This document shows, piece after piece, positions 1-8,182 of a DNA stretch of 64,000 bases. This DNA is from an uncultured Candidatus Saccharibacteria bacterium (GTDB taxonomy: Bacteria > Patescibacteriota > Minisyncoccia > Phycocordibacterales > UBA9973), in NCBI GenBank assembly GCA_964505155.1, contig CAZDGL010000002.1:26064-90063 (forward strand). The letters run 5' to 3'. The notes beneath the pieces are model-generated. The model made no database searches, was not told the DNA's origin, and saw only the letters and a program-made list of their open reading frames with translations. The position numbers and the translations under genes are program-made. Numbering within the stretch: position 1 is the stretch's first letter; each line of letters begins with the position of its first letter.

Positions 1-513
1 AACAGTCACAGTGTCTCCACCAGTTCGCCCTGGCATGCGCATCCCCATAACAACACGTCCTCCAGCACGTCCTGGTCCTCCACCTGAAGAACCTCGCTCT
101 CTTTCTGAGTGCTTCTGACCGTGAGATCTTGGTCCTCCCTTGAAATTGTATCTTTTAACAACACCCTGGAAACCTTTTGCTTTTGAAGTTCCAGTTACAG
201 TCACATCATCACCTTTTGCAAAAGATGCTACTGTCACTTCTTGCCCTGCTTCAGCAGAAAGAGCTTCTTCAGAACGAGCTTCAGCTACTATTTTGTAAGC
301 TTTGCCTCCTAGAGAACCAAGCTCTGCTTTTGATACACGAGAAGTCTTTTGGTCTTCTGAACCCAAAACAACAGCATTGTAGCCATCACTTTCGAGAGTT
401 TTAACGCGTGCCACAGTGTTTGGCATAGCTACGATAGCTGTCACAGGAGTAACAACCCCTTTATCATCAAAGAGTTGTGTCATTTTTAATTTTCTTCCTA
501 GGATGTATTTCAT
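1..513 (-). CDS. rplC: 50S ribosomal protein L3, runs off the window start
   Basis: Reverse-strand translation begins MKYILGRKLKMTQLFDDKGVVTPVTAIV and continues ...GFQGVVKRYNFKGGPRSHGQKHSERERGSSGGGPGRAGGRVVMGMRMPGRTGGDTVTV, a typical L3. It lies downstream of rpsJ. Confidence 0.85.
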   Translation of the reverse strand, partial: MKYILGRKLKMTQLFDDKGVVTPVTAIVAMPNTVARVKTLESDGYNAVVLGSEDQKTSRVSKAELGSLGGKAYKIVAEARSEEALSAEAGQEVTVASFAKGDDVTVTGTSKAKGFQGVVKRYNFKGGPRSHGQKHSERERGSSGGGPGRAGGRVVMGMRMPGRTGGDTVTV

Positions 514-677
514 AATGTTCTTGTCAGCCTTGGGCTGATATTGGACCATTTGTAAGCTTTTTAGGGCTATTTAATTGGTCCACAGATTATACACGAGTAT
601 CTATTTTGTGCAAGTCGGACATTAAGACAGTAAAAAAGCCCCTTATTAGGGGCTTAAATAAATTTCATAATTAAGAA

Positions 678-1295
678 TTATTTTGCTGAAATCTCAGGCA
701 TTGCAGGTAGAGATATGGCATCAAGTATTTTTTTAGAAAATTCATCTAAAACTGTTGCGTCATCTCTCTTATCACTGGCTTTCTTTTTGAAATGTTCAGA
801 CCTTTCTCTGATTTTTTGCTTAAAAAATTCAACCCATTTATGTACTGACCACTGTGACAATACAGCTAATACTCTCTGGTATTCAGATTTTAGTTGTTCT
901 TCGCTTATATAGACATCTATTGTGTCTATTTCTGCCCAGTCAGTAAAATCTAAATAAGGGCTATTAGGCCTTTTAGAGTGATGGCTAAATTGAACTATCC
1001 TATCACTACCGAGATATATGTAGCCCCACATTCTTTTTGGAATACCCAGACACTCATCTTTTTGGTTAACCTCAAATGATACTTTAATTTCAAACTGCTT
1101 AAGCTCACTTAGAGCCTCCAGGACATTTTTGTAGATTGTCTCTCTTCTTCCATCAGGATCATCAATCTTTTTTGTTGGTTCGCACATTATCGGCCATTTC
1201 AACATTTTTTTCTCAAAAGGAACTCCGGGGCTAAGTAAGCCATCAGTACCATGATTCTTAATAAGGATTAAAGAAGGTTTCTGCTTGTTTTCCAT
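678..1295 (-). CDS. Hypothetical protein (205 aa) inserted between rpsJ and rplC; C-terminus ...SLPAMPEISAK
   Basis: Long ORF with its own terminator hairpin at about 640-662 (AAGCCCCTAATAAGGGGCTT). No recognisable family motif. Shares a C-terminal LPxxPEIS motif with the neighbouring ORF. Confidence 0.55.
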   Translation of the reverse strand: MENKQKPSLILIKNHGTDGLLSPGVPFEKKMLKWPIMCEPTKKIDDPDGRRETIYKNVLEALSELKQFEIKVSFEVNQKDECLGIPKRMWGYIYLGSDRIVQFSHHSKRPNSPYLDFTDWAEIDTIDVYISEEQLKSEYQRVLAVLSQWSVHKWVEFFKQKIRERSEHFKKKASDKRDDATVLDEFSKKILDAISLPAMPEISAK

Positions 1296-1402
1296 CTTTT
1301 AAAGTTTTAAGTGAACAAAATAGTTTAATTCTTATAACACCCTATCATCCAACTTAACAAAGTCAAGTAAAAAGAAAATCCCCTGAAAGGGGATTTGAAT
1401 GA

Positions 1403-1948
1403 TTAATTAGTTTTTGAAATTTCTGGTAGCTGAAGAGTAGGTAATCCAGCAAAGCAGGCCATGGCCTGCAAGCCCTTGAAGAATAACTCTACCTCACGAG
1501 AAGTATTTACGGTTTCTTTCCATTCCCCACTCTTTCCCTCTACATTAATTTGAAAAACGGTTGTTTCGGGATCAGTAGGAACAATTACTGGATCAACAAC
1601 TACTTTTGGTAGAGTCTTAGGCGCTTGCGTTGAACCACCCCACCGTGAATTAAAATCTCTAAAAAATGGCCAGTCGTTACTAATATCTGATTCGAGAAGA
1701 AAATCGCAAAGTTCTAAATACCCTTTTTCGCCTGTACCGCGATACATGAATACTTTTAATGAATCGGTCTCAAGTACCTCTTTCAAAGATTTCCCTTTAA
1801 AGTAATTGTCAGAACTAGGAGAGATCATTGAACTCAGAAGTGCATTATATATTCTTGTTAGACTGTAATTGCCCTTACTTTTTGAAATAATCAGAACCTC
1901 TTTGAGAAAAGTATCAAATGGCTGATTCAAATCTATTTTCTTTTTCAT
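1403..1948 (-). CDS. Hypothetical protein (181 aa); C-terminus ...LQLPEISKTN; weakly similar to the 678-1295 product
   Basis: ORF flanked by terminator hairpins (1384-1402 AAATCCCCTTTCAGGGGATTT; 1995-2030 AAACTCCCCCAAAAGGGGAGTTTTTG). Weak similarity to its neighbour (IYKNVLEAL / IYNALLSSM) plus the shared C-terminal LP..PEIS motif. Confidence 0.55.
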   Translation of the reverse strand: MKKKIDLNQPFDTFLKEVLIISKSKGNYSLTRIYNALLSSMISPSSDNYFKGKSLKEVLETDSLKVFMYRGTGEKGYLELCDFLLESDISNDWPFFRDFNSRWGGSTQAPKTLPKVVVDPVIVPTDPETTVFQINVEGKSGEWKETVNTSREVELFFKGLQAMACFAGLPTLQLPEISKTN

Positions 1949-2064
1949 TGTGCATTATTTTTATACATTTTACATATATAAATCTATTTGTCAAGCAAAC
2001 AAAAACTCCCCTTTTGGGGGAGTTTTTGTTGTTTTTATTGAAGAGTTTTCGCAATTCTAGAGAA

Positions 2065-2421
2065 CTACATCATCTTCACATCTATATCGACACCGCTTGG
2101 CATAGATAGATTTGTGAGAGCTTCGATCACCTTCGCAGAAGGATTTTCGATATCGATGAGTCGCTTGTGTACACGCATCTCAAACTGCTCACGAGCATTT
2201 TTGTAAATGAACGCAGAGCGGTTGACTGTGTACTTTTTGATCTCTGTCGGAAGTGGTATAGGACCACGCACCTTAGCATCATAGCGAGTAGCAGTATCAA
2301 TGATTTGCTTGGTACTAACATCGAGAATCTTATTCTCATATGCTCGGACACGTATGCGAAGCATTGAAGCCACCTCATCTTTTGTAGCAGTCTTTTTTGT
2401 TACTTTTTTTGTAGTAGCCAT
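2065..2421 (-). CDS. rpsJ: 30S ribosomal protein S10
   Basis: Product ...LRIRVRAYENKILD...RGPIPLPTEIKKYTVNRSAFIYKNAREQFEMRVHKRLIDI. Sits directly downstream of tuf. Confidence 0.9.
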   Translation of the reverse strand: MATTKKVTKKTATKDEVASMLRIRVRAYENKILDVSTKQIIDTATRYDAKVRGPIPLPTEIKKYTVNRSAFIYKNAREQFEMRVHKRLIDIENPSAKVIEALTNLSMPSGVDIDVKMM

Positions 2422-2455
2422 AGTATTTTTTTCAGAAAGAGCAGTTAAGCTTAGT

Positions 2456-3649
2456 TTAGGCGATTATTTTTGTAACAACACCTGCACCAACTGTTCGGCC
2501 TCCTTCTCGGATAGCAAAGCGCATTTGCTCTTCCATCGCTACAGGAGCAACGAGCTCTACTTCAACCTTTACAGTGTCTCCTGGCATAACCATTTCTACA
2601 CCTGCTGGAAGAGTCACAGAACCAGTCACGTCTGTTGTACGAACGTAGAACTGAGGCTTGTAACCATTCATAAATGGAGTGTGTCGTCCACCTTCTTCTT
2701 TCTTAAGAACGTATACTTCACCTTCAAACTTTGTGTGAGGCTTCACAGAACCAGTCTTTGAAAGCACTTGTCCACGAGTAAGCTCTTCTTTTTTAACACC
2801 ACGGAGAAGGATACCTGCGTTGTCTCCAGCTTGACCTTGATCGAGTTGTTTGTTGAACATTTCGATACCAGTCACAGTTGTCTTCATAGTATCTTTGATA
2901 CCCACGATTTCAACTTCTTCACCAACCTTTACGATACCTCGCTCGATACGACCTGTAACCACAGTTCCACGTCCTTCGATAGAGAAAATGTCTTCGATAG
3001 GCATAAGGAATGGCTTGTCGAGATCACGAACTGGCATAGGGATGTATTCGTCGAGAGCCTTTGTAAGCTCAAGAACTTTTTGTGCCCATGGATCATCGAT
3101 AGAAGTAGATTCTAGCCCCTTGAGACCTGATCCACGAATAACAGGACAATCCTTGTCAAAACCTTGTTTTCCAAGGATTTCACGGATTTCTTCCTCAACG
3201 AGGTCAATCATTTCTGGGTCATCCACCATGTCGCACTTGTTTAGAAATACGATCATTTTTGGAACACCAACTTGTTTTGCAAGCAAAACGTGCTCACGAG
3301 TCTGAGGCATCGCTCCGTCTGTCGCTGCCACCACAAGGATAGCACCGTCCATTTGAGCGGCACCAGTAATCATGTTCTTGATGTAGTCCGCGTGACCTGG
3401 AGCATCAATGTGAGCATAGTGACGATTTGCTGTCGAATACTCGTTGTGAGAAATGTTGATTGTAATTCCACGTGCCTTTTCTTCAGGCGCTCCGTCGATT
3501 TCATCAACTCCTTTTAATTTAACTTGGTCCCCGTTCATAGAAAGAACGTGGAGGATAGCCGCTGTAAGAGTAGTCTTTCCGTGGTCAACGTGACCAATTG
3601 TTCCTACGTTTACGTGTGGCTTTGAACGATCAAATGTATCTGCTGCCAT
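2456..3649 (-). CDS. tuf: Elongation factor Tu
   Basis: [18 protein letters not shown] and NKCD GTPase motifs; 397 aa; follows fusA. Confidence 0.97.
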
Positions 3650-3838
3650 AATAATGAACTAATTAATTAATTTTGATAAATAAACTCTCGCAAATAAAAA
3701 CAAAACGCAACCATGCGATTGTGACCTATCATAGCATTTGGGCAGATATTGTCAATCCGGTAATGAGATTCTCTACTAACAGATCAAATAAAAAAGCCCC
3801 AAGAAAGCTTGGGGGTGAATTAAATAACAAATTCTAAG

Positions 3839-4264
3839 TCAGGCAATTTTCAAATGATCTATTTTGAGGTCAGTGACAGAGCCCTGTTCCAGGAACAATT
3901 CTGGAATTTCGTAATGACTACAGAATTCTTCAAAAAAGTCAGATAATGCTTCGTTTTTTACCACAGAAAGAACCTTGTTTTGTACAAAACCATCCTTACC
4001 TTCAGGACTTATATTTGCGCTCAAGAGTGCAAATATAGGTGTTTTCTGATCTTCAACAAAAAGGTTGATTATCATCGAGCCTTTTTGGCTAATCAGGCAA
4101 AACCTCATATCTAAACCTTTGAAAGAAGCAGGTAAAACAAGTAAGTCTCCTACTCCTCCCTTGATCTTTTCATGAGAGTAGTCAGTTTTGAACTTGTGAT
4201 GGGCAAATTTGAAAAGGGCTGCGGCCAAATATCTTTCGCCTTTGTTTAGTAAGTGTTTTGACAT
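3839..4264 (-). CDS. Hypothetical protein (about 141 aa), inserted between fusA and tuf
   Basis: ORF. A TTGACA-17-TAATTT promoter overlaps the annotated GTG start, so the second start (MSKHLL at 4264) is preferred. No family motif. Confidence 0.5.
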   Translation of the reverse strand: MSKHLLNKGERYLAAALFKFAHHKFKTDYSHEKIKGGVGDLLVLPASFKGLDMRFCLISQKGSMIINLFVEDQKTPIFALLSANISPEGKDGFVQNKVLSVVKNEALSDFFEEFCSHYEIPELFLEQGSVTDLKIDHLKIA

Positions 4265-4326
4265 AATATAAAAGATTTTTAATGAAATTAACACGATAAG
4301 AGCGTTTTGTCAAAAAAAATCGCTGT

Positions 4327-4995
4327 TTAGGCGATTTTTGATAAAACATTTTCTACATAATCCTCTGGAGATAATTCTTTCTGCCAGTCCGGGTCTTCAC
4401 CTATAGTTTCTGAGGTAAAAGACTTTTTTGCACTTTCTGTACCTATCCTACCGGGTTCCTCCAAAATGACTTGCTTGAAAATATTTTGTTCTTGTAAGTC
4501 TTTAGCGAGCTCTGAGACCTTCATCATACTCCTCACATAACCTTCTTCGCCTTTGCGAAATGGGTGGTTTTCGTCAAAATGAGCAGCGTGTGAACTAATA
4601 ATAATAAGAACGGTTTCCTTAAGACTTTTTTCAAAGACTTGTTTAAAGGCATTGAGTGCTACTTTTTTAGTCAAAAAATTATCTTTTGAAAGCTCGGCAA
4701 TGGCTTTTTCTTCACTTTCAAAATCCTTATCCCAAGCAAATCTACCGGCAGACAAAACTATAAGATCAACATGGTCTCGAACATCTTTTATCTCCTTCAA
4801 AAAATTGATAAAAGATTCTTCATTTTCCATATTTATCTCTTTTGCAAAGAAGTTGCCATGAAGACCTGTAATCTTGGTAATATTCCTAACTGGCAAAAAC
4901 AAATCATAACTTTTTTTCTCTAAAACTTTAGCAAATGCCCCGCCTATCCCTCCTGTAACACCTGTGATTAAAGCTGTTTTTTTCATAATGTTCAT
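4327..4995 (-). CDS. Short-chain dehydrogenase/reductase (SDR)-like NAD(P)-binding protein
   Basis: N-terminal Rossmann motif TALITGVTGGIGGAFA. The catalytic YxxxK is not canonical (GYVRSMMK). Terminator hairpin at 4296-4326. Confidence 0.6.
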   Translation of the reverse strand: MNIMKKTALITGVTGGIGGAFAKVLEKKSYDLFLPVRNITKITGLHGNFFAKEINMENEESFINFLKEIKDVRDHVDLIVLSAGRFAWDKDFESEEKAIAELSKDNFLTKKVALNAFKQVFEKSLKETVLIIISSHAAHFDENHPFRKGEEGYVRSMMKVSELAKDLQEQNIFKQVILEEPGRIGTESAKKSFTSETIGEDPDWQKELSPEDYVENVLSKIA

Positions 4996-5057
4996 TCTAC
5001 TCTTACCTCAGGACAAAAACAAAATCCGCTCTTTTTAAATTAAGCGGATTGATTGGT

Positions 5058-5252
5058 TTAATCTTCAAGTGATGACAACGCAAAGTTGGTAGCTCTTTCT
5101 CCGGAGACATCTCTGTCTGCCTTGGGTTCAGGGTTTTTGTTCTCTGGTATAACTGACCCCCTATTAACCTCGTTGTGCACGATTGGATGTGGGAATCCAA
5201 AATATGTTTGACCACCAACGATATACACCTTTGGCTTTTCTTTATTTTTCAT
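5058..5252 (-). CDS. Small hypothetical protein (64 aa)
   Basis: ORF sitting between the fusA terminator (5268-5295) and the SDR gene. No similarity recognised. Confidence 0.3.
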   Translation of the reverse strand: MKNKEKPKVYIVGGQTYFGFPHPIVHNEVNRGSVIPENKNPEPKADRDVSGERATNFALSSLED

Positions 5253-5304
5253 ATTTTTTCTTTAGTATAGCAAAAATCCCCAACATTGGGGATTTTTGAA
5301 TTTA

Positions 5305-7446
5305 TTAACTTCTTGATTTGATAATAGTGTCCGCGACGTTCTGAGGCACGATATCGTAACGCAAGAACTCCATGGTAAAACCAGCGCGTCCTTCAGTCAT
5401 AGAGCGAAGTGTTGTCATGTAACCAAACATTTCTGAAAGTGGCACCACAGCACTTACTGCTTGGTTGAGACCTCTTGTTTCCATACCTTCGATAAGACCT
5501 CGACGAGATGAGAGAGAGCCATTGACGTCTCCCATGAACTTGTCAGGAGTTACAACCTCTACCTTCATCATCGGCTCAAGGATCACAGGGCGAGCTGCCT
5601 TACATGCGTCTTGGATAGCCATAGAAGAAGCAATCTTGAACGCCATTTCGTTTGAGTCGACTTCGTGGAAGCTTCCATCATAAAGATCCACAGACACGTT
5701 CTCCATTTTAAACCCAGCCAAGATACCTCGATCGAGACCTTCTTTGAGACCTTTTTCGATAGCTGGGATGAATTCTCCTGGAATAGCTCCTCCTTTGATG
5801 TTGTTGATAAATTCAAATCCACTACTTCTCTTTGTGTTCTTTGGAAGATCTTTTTCATCCACAGACTGATCCATAGGTTTGATTTTGATTTTTACGTGAC
5901 CGTAGTTACCCTTACCACCGGATTGCTTGATGTATTTACCTTCTGCTTGTGCTTCACCAGTAATAGTTTCTCGGTAGGCTACTTGTGGTTTACCTACATT
6001 TGCCTCCACACCGAATTCTCGCTTCATACGATCCACGATAATTTCAAGGTGAAGTTCCCCCATACCTGCGATGATGGTTTCTTCTGTTTCTGGATCAGTA
6101 GAGACTTTGAAGGTTGGATCTTCATCAGCAAGCTTATTGAGAGCAAGACCCATTTTTTCTTGGTCAGCTTTTGTTTTTGGCTCAATACGAAGGTTGATAA
6201 CAGGCTCTGGGAACTTGATACGATCAAGTGCCACAGGATTTTTCTCATCACAGAGAGTGTCGGAAGTCTTGGTGTCTTTAAGTCCTACAGCAGCTGCGAT
6301 TTCTCCAGCAAAAACTTTCTTCACTTCTTCACGTTGATCGGCTTGCATACGCACGATACGAGAGAGACGTTCTTTGTTGCCAGTACGAGGATTGTAAACA
6401 TAAGAACCAGATTCGATAGTTCCAGAATAAACACGGAAAAAGACTAGCTGACCAACGAACGGATCCACCATACTCTTGAAAGCAAGAGCAGAAAACGGAG
6501 CATTGTCGTCTGCTGGAAGAGCAACTGCCTCTTCGGTATCTGGGTTGGTTCCAGTAACAGCCTTGATGTCTGTTGGAGCTGGTAGATAGTCCACCACAGC
6601 GTCAAGCACTAGCTGAACACCTTTGTTTTTCAAAGCACTTCCGGCATATACAGGGAAAATAGCGTTGGCGATGACAGCTTTTCGAAGTGTTTTCTTGAGT
6701 TCTGGTAGTGTTGGAACAGTCCCTTCTAGATAAGCTGACATTTGATCATCATCATTTTCTACGATACGTTCGATAAGCTCATCGTGATATTTTTGTGCAT
6801 CTGCCATCATGTCAGCTGGGATTTCTTTTTGAACTACTTTATTACCCATGTCGCCTTCAAAATAGTAAGCTTTCATTTCTAGAAGATCTACTACTCCTTC
6901 GTGCTTATCTTCAAGACCGATAGGGATTTGTACACGTACTGCTTTTTTAGAGAGTCGGTCGAGAATAGTTTTGTATGAGTGCTCAAATGAAGCACCAGTT
7001 CGGTCGAGCTTGTTTACAAAACAAATGCGGGGTACATTGGCTTCATCAGCATAACGCCAGTTGGTTTCTGATTGTGGCTCTACTCCAGCTACACCATCAA
7101 ACACCACCACAGCACCATCAAGCACACGAAGACTTCTCTTCACCTCAACAGTAAAGTCGATGTGTCCAGGAGTATCGATAATGTTAAATCTGTAAGAGTT
7201 CTTTTTGTCACCACCTGAATATGTCGGAATCCAGTTACAAGTCACAGCAGCAGCAGTGATAGTAATACCACGCTCACGCTCTTGTTCCATCCAGTCTGTA
7301 GTAGTCTCACCATCGTGCACCTCTCCTATCTTGTGGCTCATACCTGTATAGTAAAGGACGCGCTCTGAAGTGGTTGTCTTACCCGCATCAATATGGGCAA
7401 TGATTCCAAAGTTTCTTGTTCGCTCTAATGAATATTCTCGTTCCAT
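5305..7446 (-). CDS. fusA: Elongation factor G
   Basis: 713 aa; [10 protein letters not shown] and DTPGHIDF motifs; downstream of rpsG. Confidence 0.97.
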
Positions 7447-7711
7447 AAATTATTAATATTTGTTGTGTAAATTATAATTAAAAATAGAGCCCGACCGGGA
7501 CCTGCTTTTAGTGCAAATACTATACGATTAAACGATTATTTTTGCAACAAAAAACCCCGGTAGAAACCGGGGTTTTAATGAGACCAACTGCTTCTGTAAA
7601 GCCTCATTAAACCAAAACCAAATCCTTATGAGAACCTGTGTAAAGACTACCATAGCATAAATAAAAAACAAGCCCTAGCTGATAGTGTCAGCGAGGGCTT
7701 GTTTTTTGGGC

Positions 7712-8182
7712 TTACCAAGCAAAGTGAGCAAAAGCTTTGTTGGATTCTGCCATTTTGTGAGTATCCTTTTTCTTCTTAACAGCATTTCCTTCCCCTTTTG
7801 AAGCTTGGATAAACTCTTCAGCCAAAGCGTTGGCAATAGTGATGCCTTTGCGAGCTCGAGCGCTTTCGATGATCCATCTCATCGCTAGAGCAAGTCGGCG
7901 CTCATTGCGTACTTCTCTTGGAACTTGGTAGTTAGCTCCTCCAATACGTCGAGAACGTACTTCTACAAGTGGTCCTGCATTCTTGATAGCATTTTCAAAT
8001 ACTTCCATCGGATCTTCTACGCCTTCTTTTTCCTTCACGATATCTAGAGCATCATAAACCGCACTGCGAGCAGTGTTTTTCTTACCATCCCACATGATGC
8101 AGTTGATAAACTTCTCCAGCTTGAGTGAACCAAACTTGATATCAGGAGAAACCATATTTCTGTTTTTTACTGGTCTTCGCAT
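7712..8182 (-). CDS. rpsG: 30S ribosomal protein S7
   Basis: S7 signature ...KFINCIMWDGKKNTA...LVEVRSRRIGGANYQVP..; 156 aa. Confidence 0.92.
   Translation of the reverse strand: MRRPVKNRNMVSPDIKFGSLKLEKFINCIMWDGKKNTARSAVYDALDIVKEKEGVEDPMEVFENAIKNAGPLVEVRSRRIGGANYQVPREVRNERRLALAMRWIIESARARKGITIANALAEEFIQASKGEGNAVKKKKDTHKMAESNKAFAHFAW

Follow-up and report, generated by a model that had tools for sequence, protein, structure and literature searches.

The locus analysed here raises the question of why two small genes lie between rpsJ and rplC in the window, that is, in the whole 64-kb stretch of DNA under study. The bacterium belongs to the Paceibacteria, within the candidate phyla radiation (CPR). 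The original prediction saw in them a paralog-like pair with a common C-terminal tail, set into one of the most conserved gene junctions in bacteria. Two intact open reading frames of 181 and 205 aa, here ORF181 and ORF205, were indeed found between rpsJ and rplC on the minus strand, and they are non-housekeeping cargo, as had been proposed. The pairing, the tail and the conserved junction fared less well, and the best explanation, which we consider probable, is that ORF181 and ORF205 are independent, unrelated accessory genes that occupy a gap, peculiar to this lineage, from one transcription unit to the next, and do not interrupt an intact operon.

Organization of the locus

The gene order on the minus strand is tuf, rpsJ, ORF181, ORF205 and rplC. 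The features, listed in this order with their positions in the window, are as follows.

2456..3649, minus strand: tuf (EF-Tu), open reading frame; Pfam GTP_EFTU families matched by the identical gene
2065..2421, minus strand: rpsJ (ribosomal protein S10), Pfam PF00338 Ribosomal_S10, E 7e-32; last gene of the upstream unit
1998..2030, minus strand: predicted intrinsic terminator 3' of rpsJ, 14-15 bp stem and U-run, -20.8 kcal/mol, z -4.86
1967..1994, minus strand: predicted sigma-70-like promoter of ORF181, TTGACA, 16-nt spacer, TAAAAT; 11/12 matches
1403..1948, minus strand: ORF181, hypothetical protein of 181 aa, intact open reading frame
1376..1396, minus strand: predicted intrinsic terminator 3' of ORF181, -11.5 kcal/mol, z -3.6
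1339..1366, minus strand: promoter-like site for ORF205, TTGACT, 16-nt spacer, TAGGGT, proposed from reading the sequence
678..1295, minus strand: ORF205, 205 aa, intact open reading frame, member of an uncharacterised protein family
636..655, minus strand: predicted intrinsic terminator 3' of ORF205, -13.3 kcal/mol, z -2.9
586..613, minus strand: predicted rplC promoter, TTGCAC, 16-nt spacer, TATAAT
509..585, minus strand: conserved rplC leader, from a covariance model and comparison with relatives
1..513, minus strand: rplC (ribosomal protein L3), partial, 5' part; Pfam PF00297 Ribosomal_L3

The promoters and terminators are predictions from sequence, a terminator being a hairpin with a U-run that is more stable than shuffled sequence. 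Reading of the 34 nt between tuf and rpsJ revealed no intervening terminator, and the two genes would therefore form one transcription unit. After rpsJ, ORF181 and ORF205, a GC-rich hairpin with a U-run follows directly on the stop codon, and the predicted strong terminator 3' of each of the three genes agrees with the earlier view that the operon is transcriptionally split. The promoter-like site of ORF205 was not listed by the promoter scan and was found by reading the sequence; its -10 box is poor, so that ORF205 might depend on read-through. The downstream unit, rplC-rplD-rplW-rplB, starts with rplC, as seen from the full operon on identical contigs.

The rpsJ/rplC junction in related genomes

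The comparison of the junction in related genomes, which the original prediction had proposed, found a gap of variable length that is filled with differing genes or empty, and the premise of a conserved junction fails in this lineage. The L3 N-terminus of the 12 nearest relatives is 63-86% identical. Each of the 12 has a predicted terminator 3' of rpsJ and a separate, conserved promoter 5' of rplC, and 11 also share the conserved leader that follows this promoter. The gap measures 150-2617 nt in these genomes and is longer than 300 nt in 9 of them. The cargo, viewed in these relatives and additionally in L023, differs among the genomes: DUF4258 and DUF2283 in L012 and L023, HicB and HicA with a pilin-like protein in L014, PemK/MazF (Pfam) in L020 and L021, a homologue 67% identical to the L021 protein in L024, unknown genes in L015 and L022, and nothing in L013 and L017. 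Among 61 more distant Paceibacteria the gap is at most 120 nt and lacks a terminator in 41. Within the clade, the junctions rplC/rplD, rplD/rplW, rplW/rplB, rpsS/rplV and rplV/rpsC are all at most 125 nt, and only fusA/tuf, rpsJ/rplC and rplB/rpsS are expanded or variable. The rpsJ/rplC junction thus combines the features of an accessory-gene hotspot, namely the same core flanks, cargo that differs or is absent, and tight neighbouring junctions. Because the relatives carry the terminator, the promoter and unrelated cargo, the operon appears to have been split already in the ancestor of the clade, and the junction is such a hotspot, placed at the border of an operon; with the site already cut and occupied differently in relatives, it is variable in an ordinary way and not the seat of a tagged gene pair.

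Accessory-gene hotspots flanked by core genes are a general feature of bacterial pangenomes, in which they are called integration hotspots. The present junction resembles them in its constant core flanks, differing cargo, toxin-antitoxin modules among this cargo and empty sites in relatives, but it spans only 0-2.6 kb, is embedded in the best-conserved cluster of genes in the genome and is free of integrase and transposase genes, tRNAs and att repeats. No integrase or transposase family was matched by the open reading frames in the gap, no att-type repeats were found flanking the cargo, and no tRNA lies nearby, so that the features of a mobile genetic element are missing; the GC content and codon usage of ORF181 and ORF205 are host-like. 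Evolution by the insertion of a few genes between the units of the ribosomal operon cluster has been described, and the boundary reported for Gammaproteobacteria and Bacilli is str/S10, upstream of rpsJ, where the inserts are metabolic operons (PMC8046335). The Paceibacteria clade shares with those cases a small number of unrelated genes at a unit boundary, a preserved order of ribosomal genes and a content that varies among related species. It differs in that the boundary has moved to rpsJ/rplC, with rpsJ riding with tuf and rplC having its own promoter and leader, and in its cargo, with toxin-antitoxin modules and genes of unknown type taking the place of metabolic operons. A search of the literature for this junction in Patescibacteria yielded nothing specific.

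The rplC promoter of the clade is conserved as cTTGCRC-N16/17-gTGTATAAT (13 genomes compared). The leader contains a variable hairpin with covarying positions, bordered by UGGUCCAAU and AAGAACA, both of which are invariant. The covariance model matched the window with 56 bits, this being a training sequence, and it matched the 11 relatives used in its building as well as L023, which was not used. Rfam assigned no family to the leader, and a scan of positions 1-8000 gave only sub-threshold terminator look-alikes. The leader is a candidate cis-regulatory RNA of CPR bacteria, possibly an autoregulatory one controlled by a ribosomal protein. In E. coli, the leader of the S10 operon is an autoregulatory RNA whose action is mediated by L4. 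Both are conserved structured 5' leaders before the unit for L3, L4, L23 and L2; however, the leader of the clade stands upstream of rplC and not of rpsJ, differs in sequence as well as in structure, and is not matched by any Rfam family.

The model that we prefer for the whole locus is that the Paceibacteria clade would have re-cut the classical S10 operon. The tuf and rpsJ genes would end at a strong intrinsic terminator, and rplC-rplD-rplW-rplB would start from a conserved promoter and 5' leader of its own. The DNA between the terminator and the promoter may be selectively neutral for the expression of the ribosomal genes, and would for that reason gather and swap small self-contained cassettes, each with a promoter, a gene and a terminator, of which the window would hold two, ORF181 and ORF205. 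The cargo may turn over by homologous recombination through the conserved flanking ribosomal genes.

Two independent proteins

Profile and structure searches had also been suggested by the original prediction. The profile searches on both proteins gave no Pfam, PADLOC, PHROGs, NCBIfam or PDB sequence match for either. In an exhaustive phmmer search ORF205 recovered 74 family representatives at E<=1e-3, 35 of them at <=1e-10, with E values from 2.5e-37 to 1e-3 across residues 1 to ~195. The members are stand-alone proteins of ~175-215 aa (about 190 aa), and they are characterized by the motifs MENKxKPS, EMLxWPI, RTWGxIYL, FSH[DH]xR..N.PF..L..WPE and W..FF..RI, after which come helices at the C-terminus. 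ORF205 keeps the invariant W120 and W154 together with the near-invariant F68, S73, W90, G91, H105, E122, W149 and F158. From these alignments ORF205 is a member of a real, uncharacterised, stand-alone and sporadically distributed family. The same libraries gave only scattered single matches on 40 aligned relatives, no fused domains were found in the longer members, and the AlphaFold model of ORF205 alone was unusable (pLDDT 36).

Three assignments were tried for this family and rejected. A WYL domain was indicated by one of the 40 members, which matched the PADLOC WYL profile (E 1.2e-5), but there was no Pfam WYL match, hhalign against the pEFER BrxR WYL protein gave a probability of 0.1%, and after this comparison and a scan of 10 divergent members the lead was dropped. 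A 2H phosphoesterase, with H-x-T/S motifs, and a PD-(D/E)xK protein were both considered by eye; the first motif of the former and the acidic residue of the latter are not conserved in the family, and neither has PDB sequence support.

ORF181 has a helical N-terminal half and a single distant homologue, which a second Paceibacteria genome (L016) carries between rpsJ and rplC as well, this count coming from a word-indexed search that also missed every relative of ORF205. Its cassette is syntenic in L016, the promoter region included, though the protein is merely 21-24% identical, and the conserved N-terminal region and promoter persist across genomes whose L3 proteins are only 64% identical. 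Downstream of the L016 homologue, TTGACT, a 16-nt spacer and TAAGGT repeat the architecture of the promoter-like site of ORF205 in the window. An AlphaFold model of ORF181 with its homologue reached pLDDT 54, and a Foldseek search of PDB and BFVD with it found nothing below E 0.1. The known sister strain was the only match to the ORF181 alignment in the metagenome scan, and no relatives of ORF181 or ORF205 were found in the phage GenBank collection or IMG/VR. ORF181 would accordingly be described as a fast-evolving, clade-restricted protein.

The two proteins had been called paralog-like, with weak mutual similarity. BLASTP produced no alignment between them at E<=100, and hhalign of the family profiles gave a probability of 0.3% over 9 columns; compared by sequence, ORF181 and ORF205 are unrelated and not paralogues. 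Moreover, the nine other contexts in which ORF205-family genes were viewed contain no relative of ORF181 and no common neighbour, and across these contexts the two are not a conserved pair.

Both genes are probably of the accessory or conflict type, as the toxin-antitoxin cargo of the sister genomes suggests. A stronger form of this idea, in which ORF181 and ORF205, alone or as a pair, are a system not described before, for defence against phages or for toxin-like conflict, in a defence-type hotspot, is unlikely. HicAB, PemK/MazF and DUF4258/DUF2283 at the same junction of sister genomes, the fast evolution of ORF181, the sporadic and context-independent occurrence of the ORF205 family and its one WYL-profile match would favour it. 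Against it stand the lack of PADLOC, PHROG or Pfam matches in both window proteins, the isolation of that WYL match among the 40 members, and the failure to recognise any effector motif, such as that of a nuclease or an ATPase; elsewhere the family has ordinary housekeeping genes and not defence islands around it. Type II toxin-antitoxin modules (HicAB, MazF/PemK, DUF4258/DUF2283) are found at this very junction in sister genomes, but ORF181 and ORF205 match no such family in Pfam or PADLOC, are much larger and, with a terminator and a promoter between them, are not a co-transcribed pair. It is tempting to speculate, with very little expectation that it is right, that the ORF205 family represents an undescribed Patescibacteria protein for conflict or defence, acting alone and moving from one 'safe' terminator-promoter gap beside core genes to another; ORF181 would then be a rapidly evolving partner or counter-measure, and PEIS a species-specific tag by which both dock to a common factor.

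A second alternative regards the two frames as pseudogenes in decay, or as spurious open reading frames without function, in a neutral spacer. The comparison of two strains gives it some encouragement: rpsJ differs by 5 synonymous and 0 non-synonymous changes, whereas ORF181 has 4 synonymous and 6 non-synonymous changes and ORF205 has 1 and 4, and in both the non-synonymous changes are at least as many as the synonymous ones. The two proteins also contain no known domains, and ORF181 is nearly an orphan. However, 5-10 substitutions are too few to establish neutrality, both frames are intact and of full length in both strains, and each has a predicted terminator of its own. Over its full length ORF205 can be aligned with dozens of homologues, and none of the invariant residues of the family is missing from it; the conservation of the ORF181 promoter and N-terminal region among genomes as divergent as noted above speaks in the same direction. 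This alternative is very improbable.

The C-terminal ends

The two proteins end in ...LPAMPEISAK and ...LQLPEISKTN, and to this extent the common tail that had been described is present, PEIS occurring in both. The similarity is at chance level, ~0.3-2% per pair: a common 4-mer within the last 12 residues was found in 5 of the 2080 gene pairs of the window, and the alignment score of the two tails, 24, is attained by 6 of 2080 (shuffle p ~0.01). When PE[IVL][ST] or LP..P was sought in the last 15 residues of the ORF205 family, the same-species copy was the sole carrier and all 74 representatives outside the species lacked a tail of the PEIS type; the ORF181 homologue, which ends in ...LIIPMPK, has none either. 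LPxxPEIS is consequently not a family feature, its absence from orthologues being the very outcome that the original prediction had named as refuting.

Elsewhere in the 64 kb, a C-terminal PEIS was found on no open reading frame of 50 aa or more. Like the LPXTG sequence recognised by sortase and the PEP-CTERM signal, LPxxPEIS is a short proline-containing motif near the C-terminus, but it differs from both in being unconserved in homologues and in having no hydrophobic helix, basic tail or N-terminal signal peptide. Only 2-3 polar residues follow PEIS, without a hydrophobic segment or basic cluster, and inspection of the translated N-termini, MENKQKPS... and MKKKIDLNQPFD..., showed no hydrophobic signal segment. 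The least credible of the explanations, that ORF181 and ORF205 form a functional pair with an LPxxPEIS tag for targeting, sorting, degradation or partner docking, can point to adjoining genes, to endings of the form L-P-x(1-4)-P-E-I-S plus 2-3 residues, to the low chance of such a match for a given pair and to a tail unchanged in the second strain (L001), but it is opposed by the results on homologues, on the remaining window and on sorting features given here, by the lack of relationship between two proteins never seen together in the other contexts, and by the predicted promoter and terminator of each gene. The common ending is most readily taken as a coincidence.

Significance of the gap

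The findings are not a new kind of biology. They correct an assumption: in the Paceibacteria clade rpsJ/rplC would be an operon boundary and not an intra-operon junction, and cargo would therefore be tolerated and common there. A contiguous S10 operon should not be expected by annotators of such CPR genomes. Two by-products are the uncharacterised protein family of ORF205 (74 clusters) and the conserved, covarying rplC leader, which has no Rfam entry. The gaps fusA/tuf, rpsJ/rplC and rplB/rpsS are easily located sources of lineage-specific accessory genes, toxin-antitoxin modules included, and might be of further use as neutral sites at which genetic tools could be inserted.

Gene order and signals around rpsJ and rplC

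Two hypothetical-protein genes, ORF181 (181 aa) and ORF205 (205 aa), separate rpsJ from rplC in the window, in the following order:

5305-7446, minus strand, fusA
4327-4995, minus strand, short-chain dehydrogenase (222 aa, PF00106), between fusA and tuf
3839-4294, minus strand, 151-aa protein without family match, between fusA and tuf
2456-3649, minus strand, tuf
2065-2421, minus strand, rpsJ
1998-2030, intrinsic terminator 3' of rpsJ (-20.8 kcal/mol, z-score -4.9)
5' of ORF181, promoter-like site TTGACA, 16-nt spacer, TAAAAT (11/12 matches; sequence reading and promoter scan)
1403-1948, minus strand, ORF181
1376-1396, intrinsic terminator 3' of ORF181 (-11.5 kcal/mol, z-score -3.6)
5' of ORF205, promoter-like site TTGACT, 16-nt spacer, TAGGGT (weak -10 box; sequence reading)
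678-1295, minus strand, ORF205
636-655, intrinsic terminator 3' of ORF205 (-13.3 kcal/mol, z-score -2.9)
509-613, minus strand, rplC promoter (promoter-like site TTGCAC, 16-nt spacer, TATAAT; sequence reading) and 5' leader of ~70 nt, with counterparts 5' of rplC in the related loci L013-L024
513 down to 1, minus strand, rplC, partial, running beyond the window edge

The hairpins at the ends of rpsJ, ORF181 and ORF205 were located by a terminator scan and then compared with shuffled sequence, which all three far exceeded in stability. On the minus strand a promoter-like site lies 3' of each of the three terminators, and the spacer from tuf to rpsJ is only 34 nt long and contains no hairpin. 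Because of these terminators, promoter-like sites and spacing, the anatomy described in the original prediction, two ORFs between rpsJ and rplC each with a terminator, is real. No Shine-Dalgarno sequence was recognisable at any of the four start codons read (rpsJ, ORF181, ORF205, rplC), and the regions upstream of start codons are A-rich (e.g. 2422-2435, 1949-1960, 1296-1310 and 514-525, minus strand). With transcription from the predicted -10 box, ORF181 would have a leader of only ~12 nt.

The junction in related genomes

Eighty Patescibacteria loci were gathered through the S10 protein, mostly from Paceibacteria, Nomurabacteria or Yonathbacteria-type MAGs, which places the window's organism in that group. 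The 12 loci with an L3 N-terminus 63-86% identical constitute the window's clade. The view of the junction as inviolable did not survive this comparison: all 12 clade loci carry a strong terminator directly 3' of rpsJ and the conserved promoter cTTGCRC-N16/17-gTGTATAAT 5' of rplC, the two genes lie 150-2617 nt apart, and the cargo between them varies among genomes. The classical contiguous arrangement, with no more than 120 nt between the two genes and no terminator, is found in 41 of 61 more distant relatives; among all 73 loci measured, a terminator is present in 12 of the 16 gaps above 400 nt.

Content of the rpsJ-rplC gap in related loci
L013, L017: empty (150 and 151 nt)
L018, L019: no ORF of at least 50 aa wholly inside (335 and 235 nt)
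L012: DUF4258 and DUF2283 (toxin-antitoxin, 5433-5878), plus membrane proteins
L023: shorter L012-like DUF4258 toxin and DUF2283-type antitoxin, both by eye (5684-6051); 151-aa unknown
L014: HicB and HicA (toxin-antitoxin, 5827-6214), lipoprotein-like protein, pilin-like protein
L020, L021: solitary PemK/MazF toxin by Pfam (5442-5834; 5490-5879), no obvious adjoining antitoxin ORF
L024: homologue of the L020/L021 PemK/MazF, 67% identical to that of L021 by BLASTP (5396-5785)
L016: ORF181 homologue and a 77-aa gene
L015, L022: other unknowns

The junctions within rplC-rplD-rplW-rplB and rpsS-rplV-rpsC are tight and never exceed 125 nt, and fusA-tuf and rplB-rpsS are expanded, as is rpsJ-rplC. 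As read from the predicted signals, the clade is shown to have re-cut the str/S10 cluster into the units tuf-rpsJ, rplC-rplD-rplW-rplB and one starting with rpsS, the cargo being located exactly in the interval from a unit's terminator to the following unit's promoter; in the window each cargo gene is served by a predicted promoter and a predicted terminator of its own.

The fusA-tuf junction is a second interruption of the cluster (3839-4995 in the window; 145-1423 nt in the clade). A third variable junction, rplB-rpsS, lies beyond the rplC end of the window (6774-7399 in L001 and 4912-6262 in L002, both sister-strain contigs); among 29 more distant Paceibacteria, 20 have more than 300 nt there. 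Both sister contigs contain a diacylglycerol kinase gene (PF01219) there; an extra 168-aa unknown ORF in L002 is missing from the 97-98% identical L001, and therefore shows strain-level presence/absence. The sister strain (L001/L106; 97-98% protein identity) is represented by contig JACCDV010460722.1 (167 kb), number 460722 of GCA_013565675.1, which is present in a metagenome collection too.

A leader with invariant UGGUCCAAU and AAGAACA, the latter just 5' of the ATG, precedes rplC in 11 of the 12 clade loci; the two elements can pair around a variable hairpin, with compensatory changes in four pairs. The leader has no Rfam match. A covariance model matched it in the window, in the 11 relatives from which the model was built and in L023, and in no other source among the 81 searched; L012 too is without a match. 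It is a candidate autoregulatory leader for a ribosomal protein, perhaps L4 or L3.

The two cargo proteins and the PEIS tail

The fetched loci contain a single homologue of ORF181, P0003 (21-24% identity, phmmer E 4e-6), located between rpsJ and rplC of L016, another Paceibacteria genome. The promoter region 5' of ORF181 is clearly conserved with L016, and so are the terminator 3' of the homologue and the following TTGACT-N16-TA[AG]GGT promoter; in L016 the gene behind this second promoter is the different, 77-aa one. Since these three signals are conserved, the cassette is old at the site, and its divergence has been far more rapid than that of the neighbouring S10 (91% identical) and L3 (N-terminus 64% identical) between the two genomes. 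The exact ORF181 protein occurs on short contigs of the run series SRR13076511 to SRR13076595 and of the runs SRR13208906 and SRR26856460, a recurrence which suggests a single habitat or study.

Both ORFs are intact in the two strains, with 4 synonymous and 6 non-synonymous changes in ORF181, 1 and 4 in ORF205, and 5 and 0 in rpsJ; these small counts would reflect weak constraint or fast evolution of the cargo genes. Structure prediction gave no usable answer for either protein.

ORF205 has no match in Pfam, PADLOC, PHROG or NCBIfam, and a word-indexed search returned solely the 98%-identical copy of the sister strain. At E<=1e-3 exhaustive phmmer gave 74 cluster representatives, with 35 left at <=1e-10 and 5 at <=1e-30; nearly all are of 170-215 aa, and most align across most of their length. 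In an alignment of 40 sequences W120 and W154 are invariant, F68, S73, W90, G91, I93, F103, H105, E122, W149 and F158 are near-invariant; the N-terminus is conserved (MENKxKPS), and two helices lie at the C-terminal end. On this alignment ORF205 belongs to a real, uncharacterised protein family. A WYL reading did not hold up, the PADLOC WYL match being limited to 1 of the 40 members. Ten members looked up occupy nine different contexts, including mraZ-rsmH-ftsI, pilM/ruvX, pyk/def-fmt-hisS and NUDIX/Maf neighbourhoods, with no recurring neighbour, ribosomal operon or ORF181 relative; by these contexts the gene stands alone and its placement is sporadic.

The two proteins had been considered paralogue-like, but BLASTP gave no alignment at E<=100 and profile-profile comparison of the two families a probability of 0.3%; they are not paralogues. 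Their tails, ...SLPAMPEISAK and ...LPTLQLPEISKTN, had been proposed as a possible shared tag. A 4-mer common to the last 12 residues occurs in 5 of 2080 gene pairs of the window; the local alignment score of the 15-residue tails, 24, is reached by 6 of 2080 pairs and, against unrelated tails, by 20/911 for the ORF205 tail and 3/911 for that of ORF181, and shuffling gave p ~0.01. By these several null comparisons the match is near chance. No other ORF of the window has such an LP..PEIS ending, and the motif is missing from all ORF205-family representatives outside the window's species and from the ORF181 homologue. This absence in orthologues, named beforehand as counting against the tag, indicates that the tail is not a family feature. 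Nothing in it resembles a sortase or PEP-CTERM signal, as judged from the translations: the motif is followed by neither a hydrophobic segment nor a basic tail, and neither protein has an N-terminal signal peptide. The original observation is confirmed in part: gene layout and terminators stand, the mutual similarity and a meaningful tail do not. Its interpretation, in which two paralogues share a tag at an inviolable junction, is largely without support.

A relocated operon boundary with recurrent cargo

A gap between terminator and promoter would be neutral for ribosomal protein expression, so that insertions could survive there. Cargo would most likely be exchanged via homologous recombination in the flanks, which are very conserved. 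Neither an integrase or transposase nor a tRNA or att repeat lies at the rpsJ-rplC cargo, and composition is host-like, ORF181 and ORF205 falling inside the host range in GC content, GC3 and codon usage. Natural transformation that involves homologous recombination has been shown for Patescibacteria, though for Saccharibacteria and not for the window's clade (PMC10633639). By its context alone, next to the toxin-antitoxin cargo that other genomes have at the site, the ORF181 and ORF205 pair most likely serves accessory or conflict-related roles.

Accessory-gene hotspots flanked by core genes are a general notion, which the rpsJ-rplC site fits. The closest description, in PMC8046335, is that of small gene sets inserted between the operons that make up the conserved ribosomal cluster; there the boundary lies before rpsJ, whereas in the window's clade it lies after rpsJ and the cargo is small, toxin-antitoxin-rich or unknown. 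The arrangement adds a new example to a known type of organisation and is not a new type. Three results are useful: an operon boundary that has moved and repeatedly holds cargo, a defined family of uncharacterised proteins, and a candidate leader RNA at rplC.
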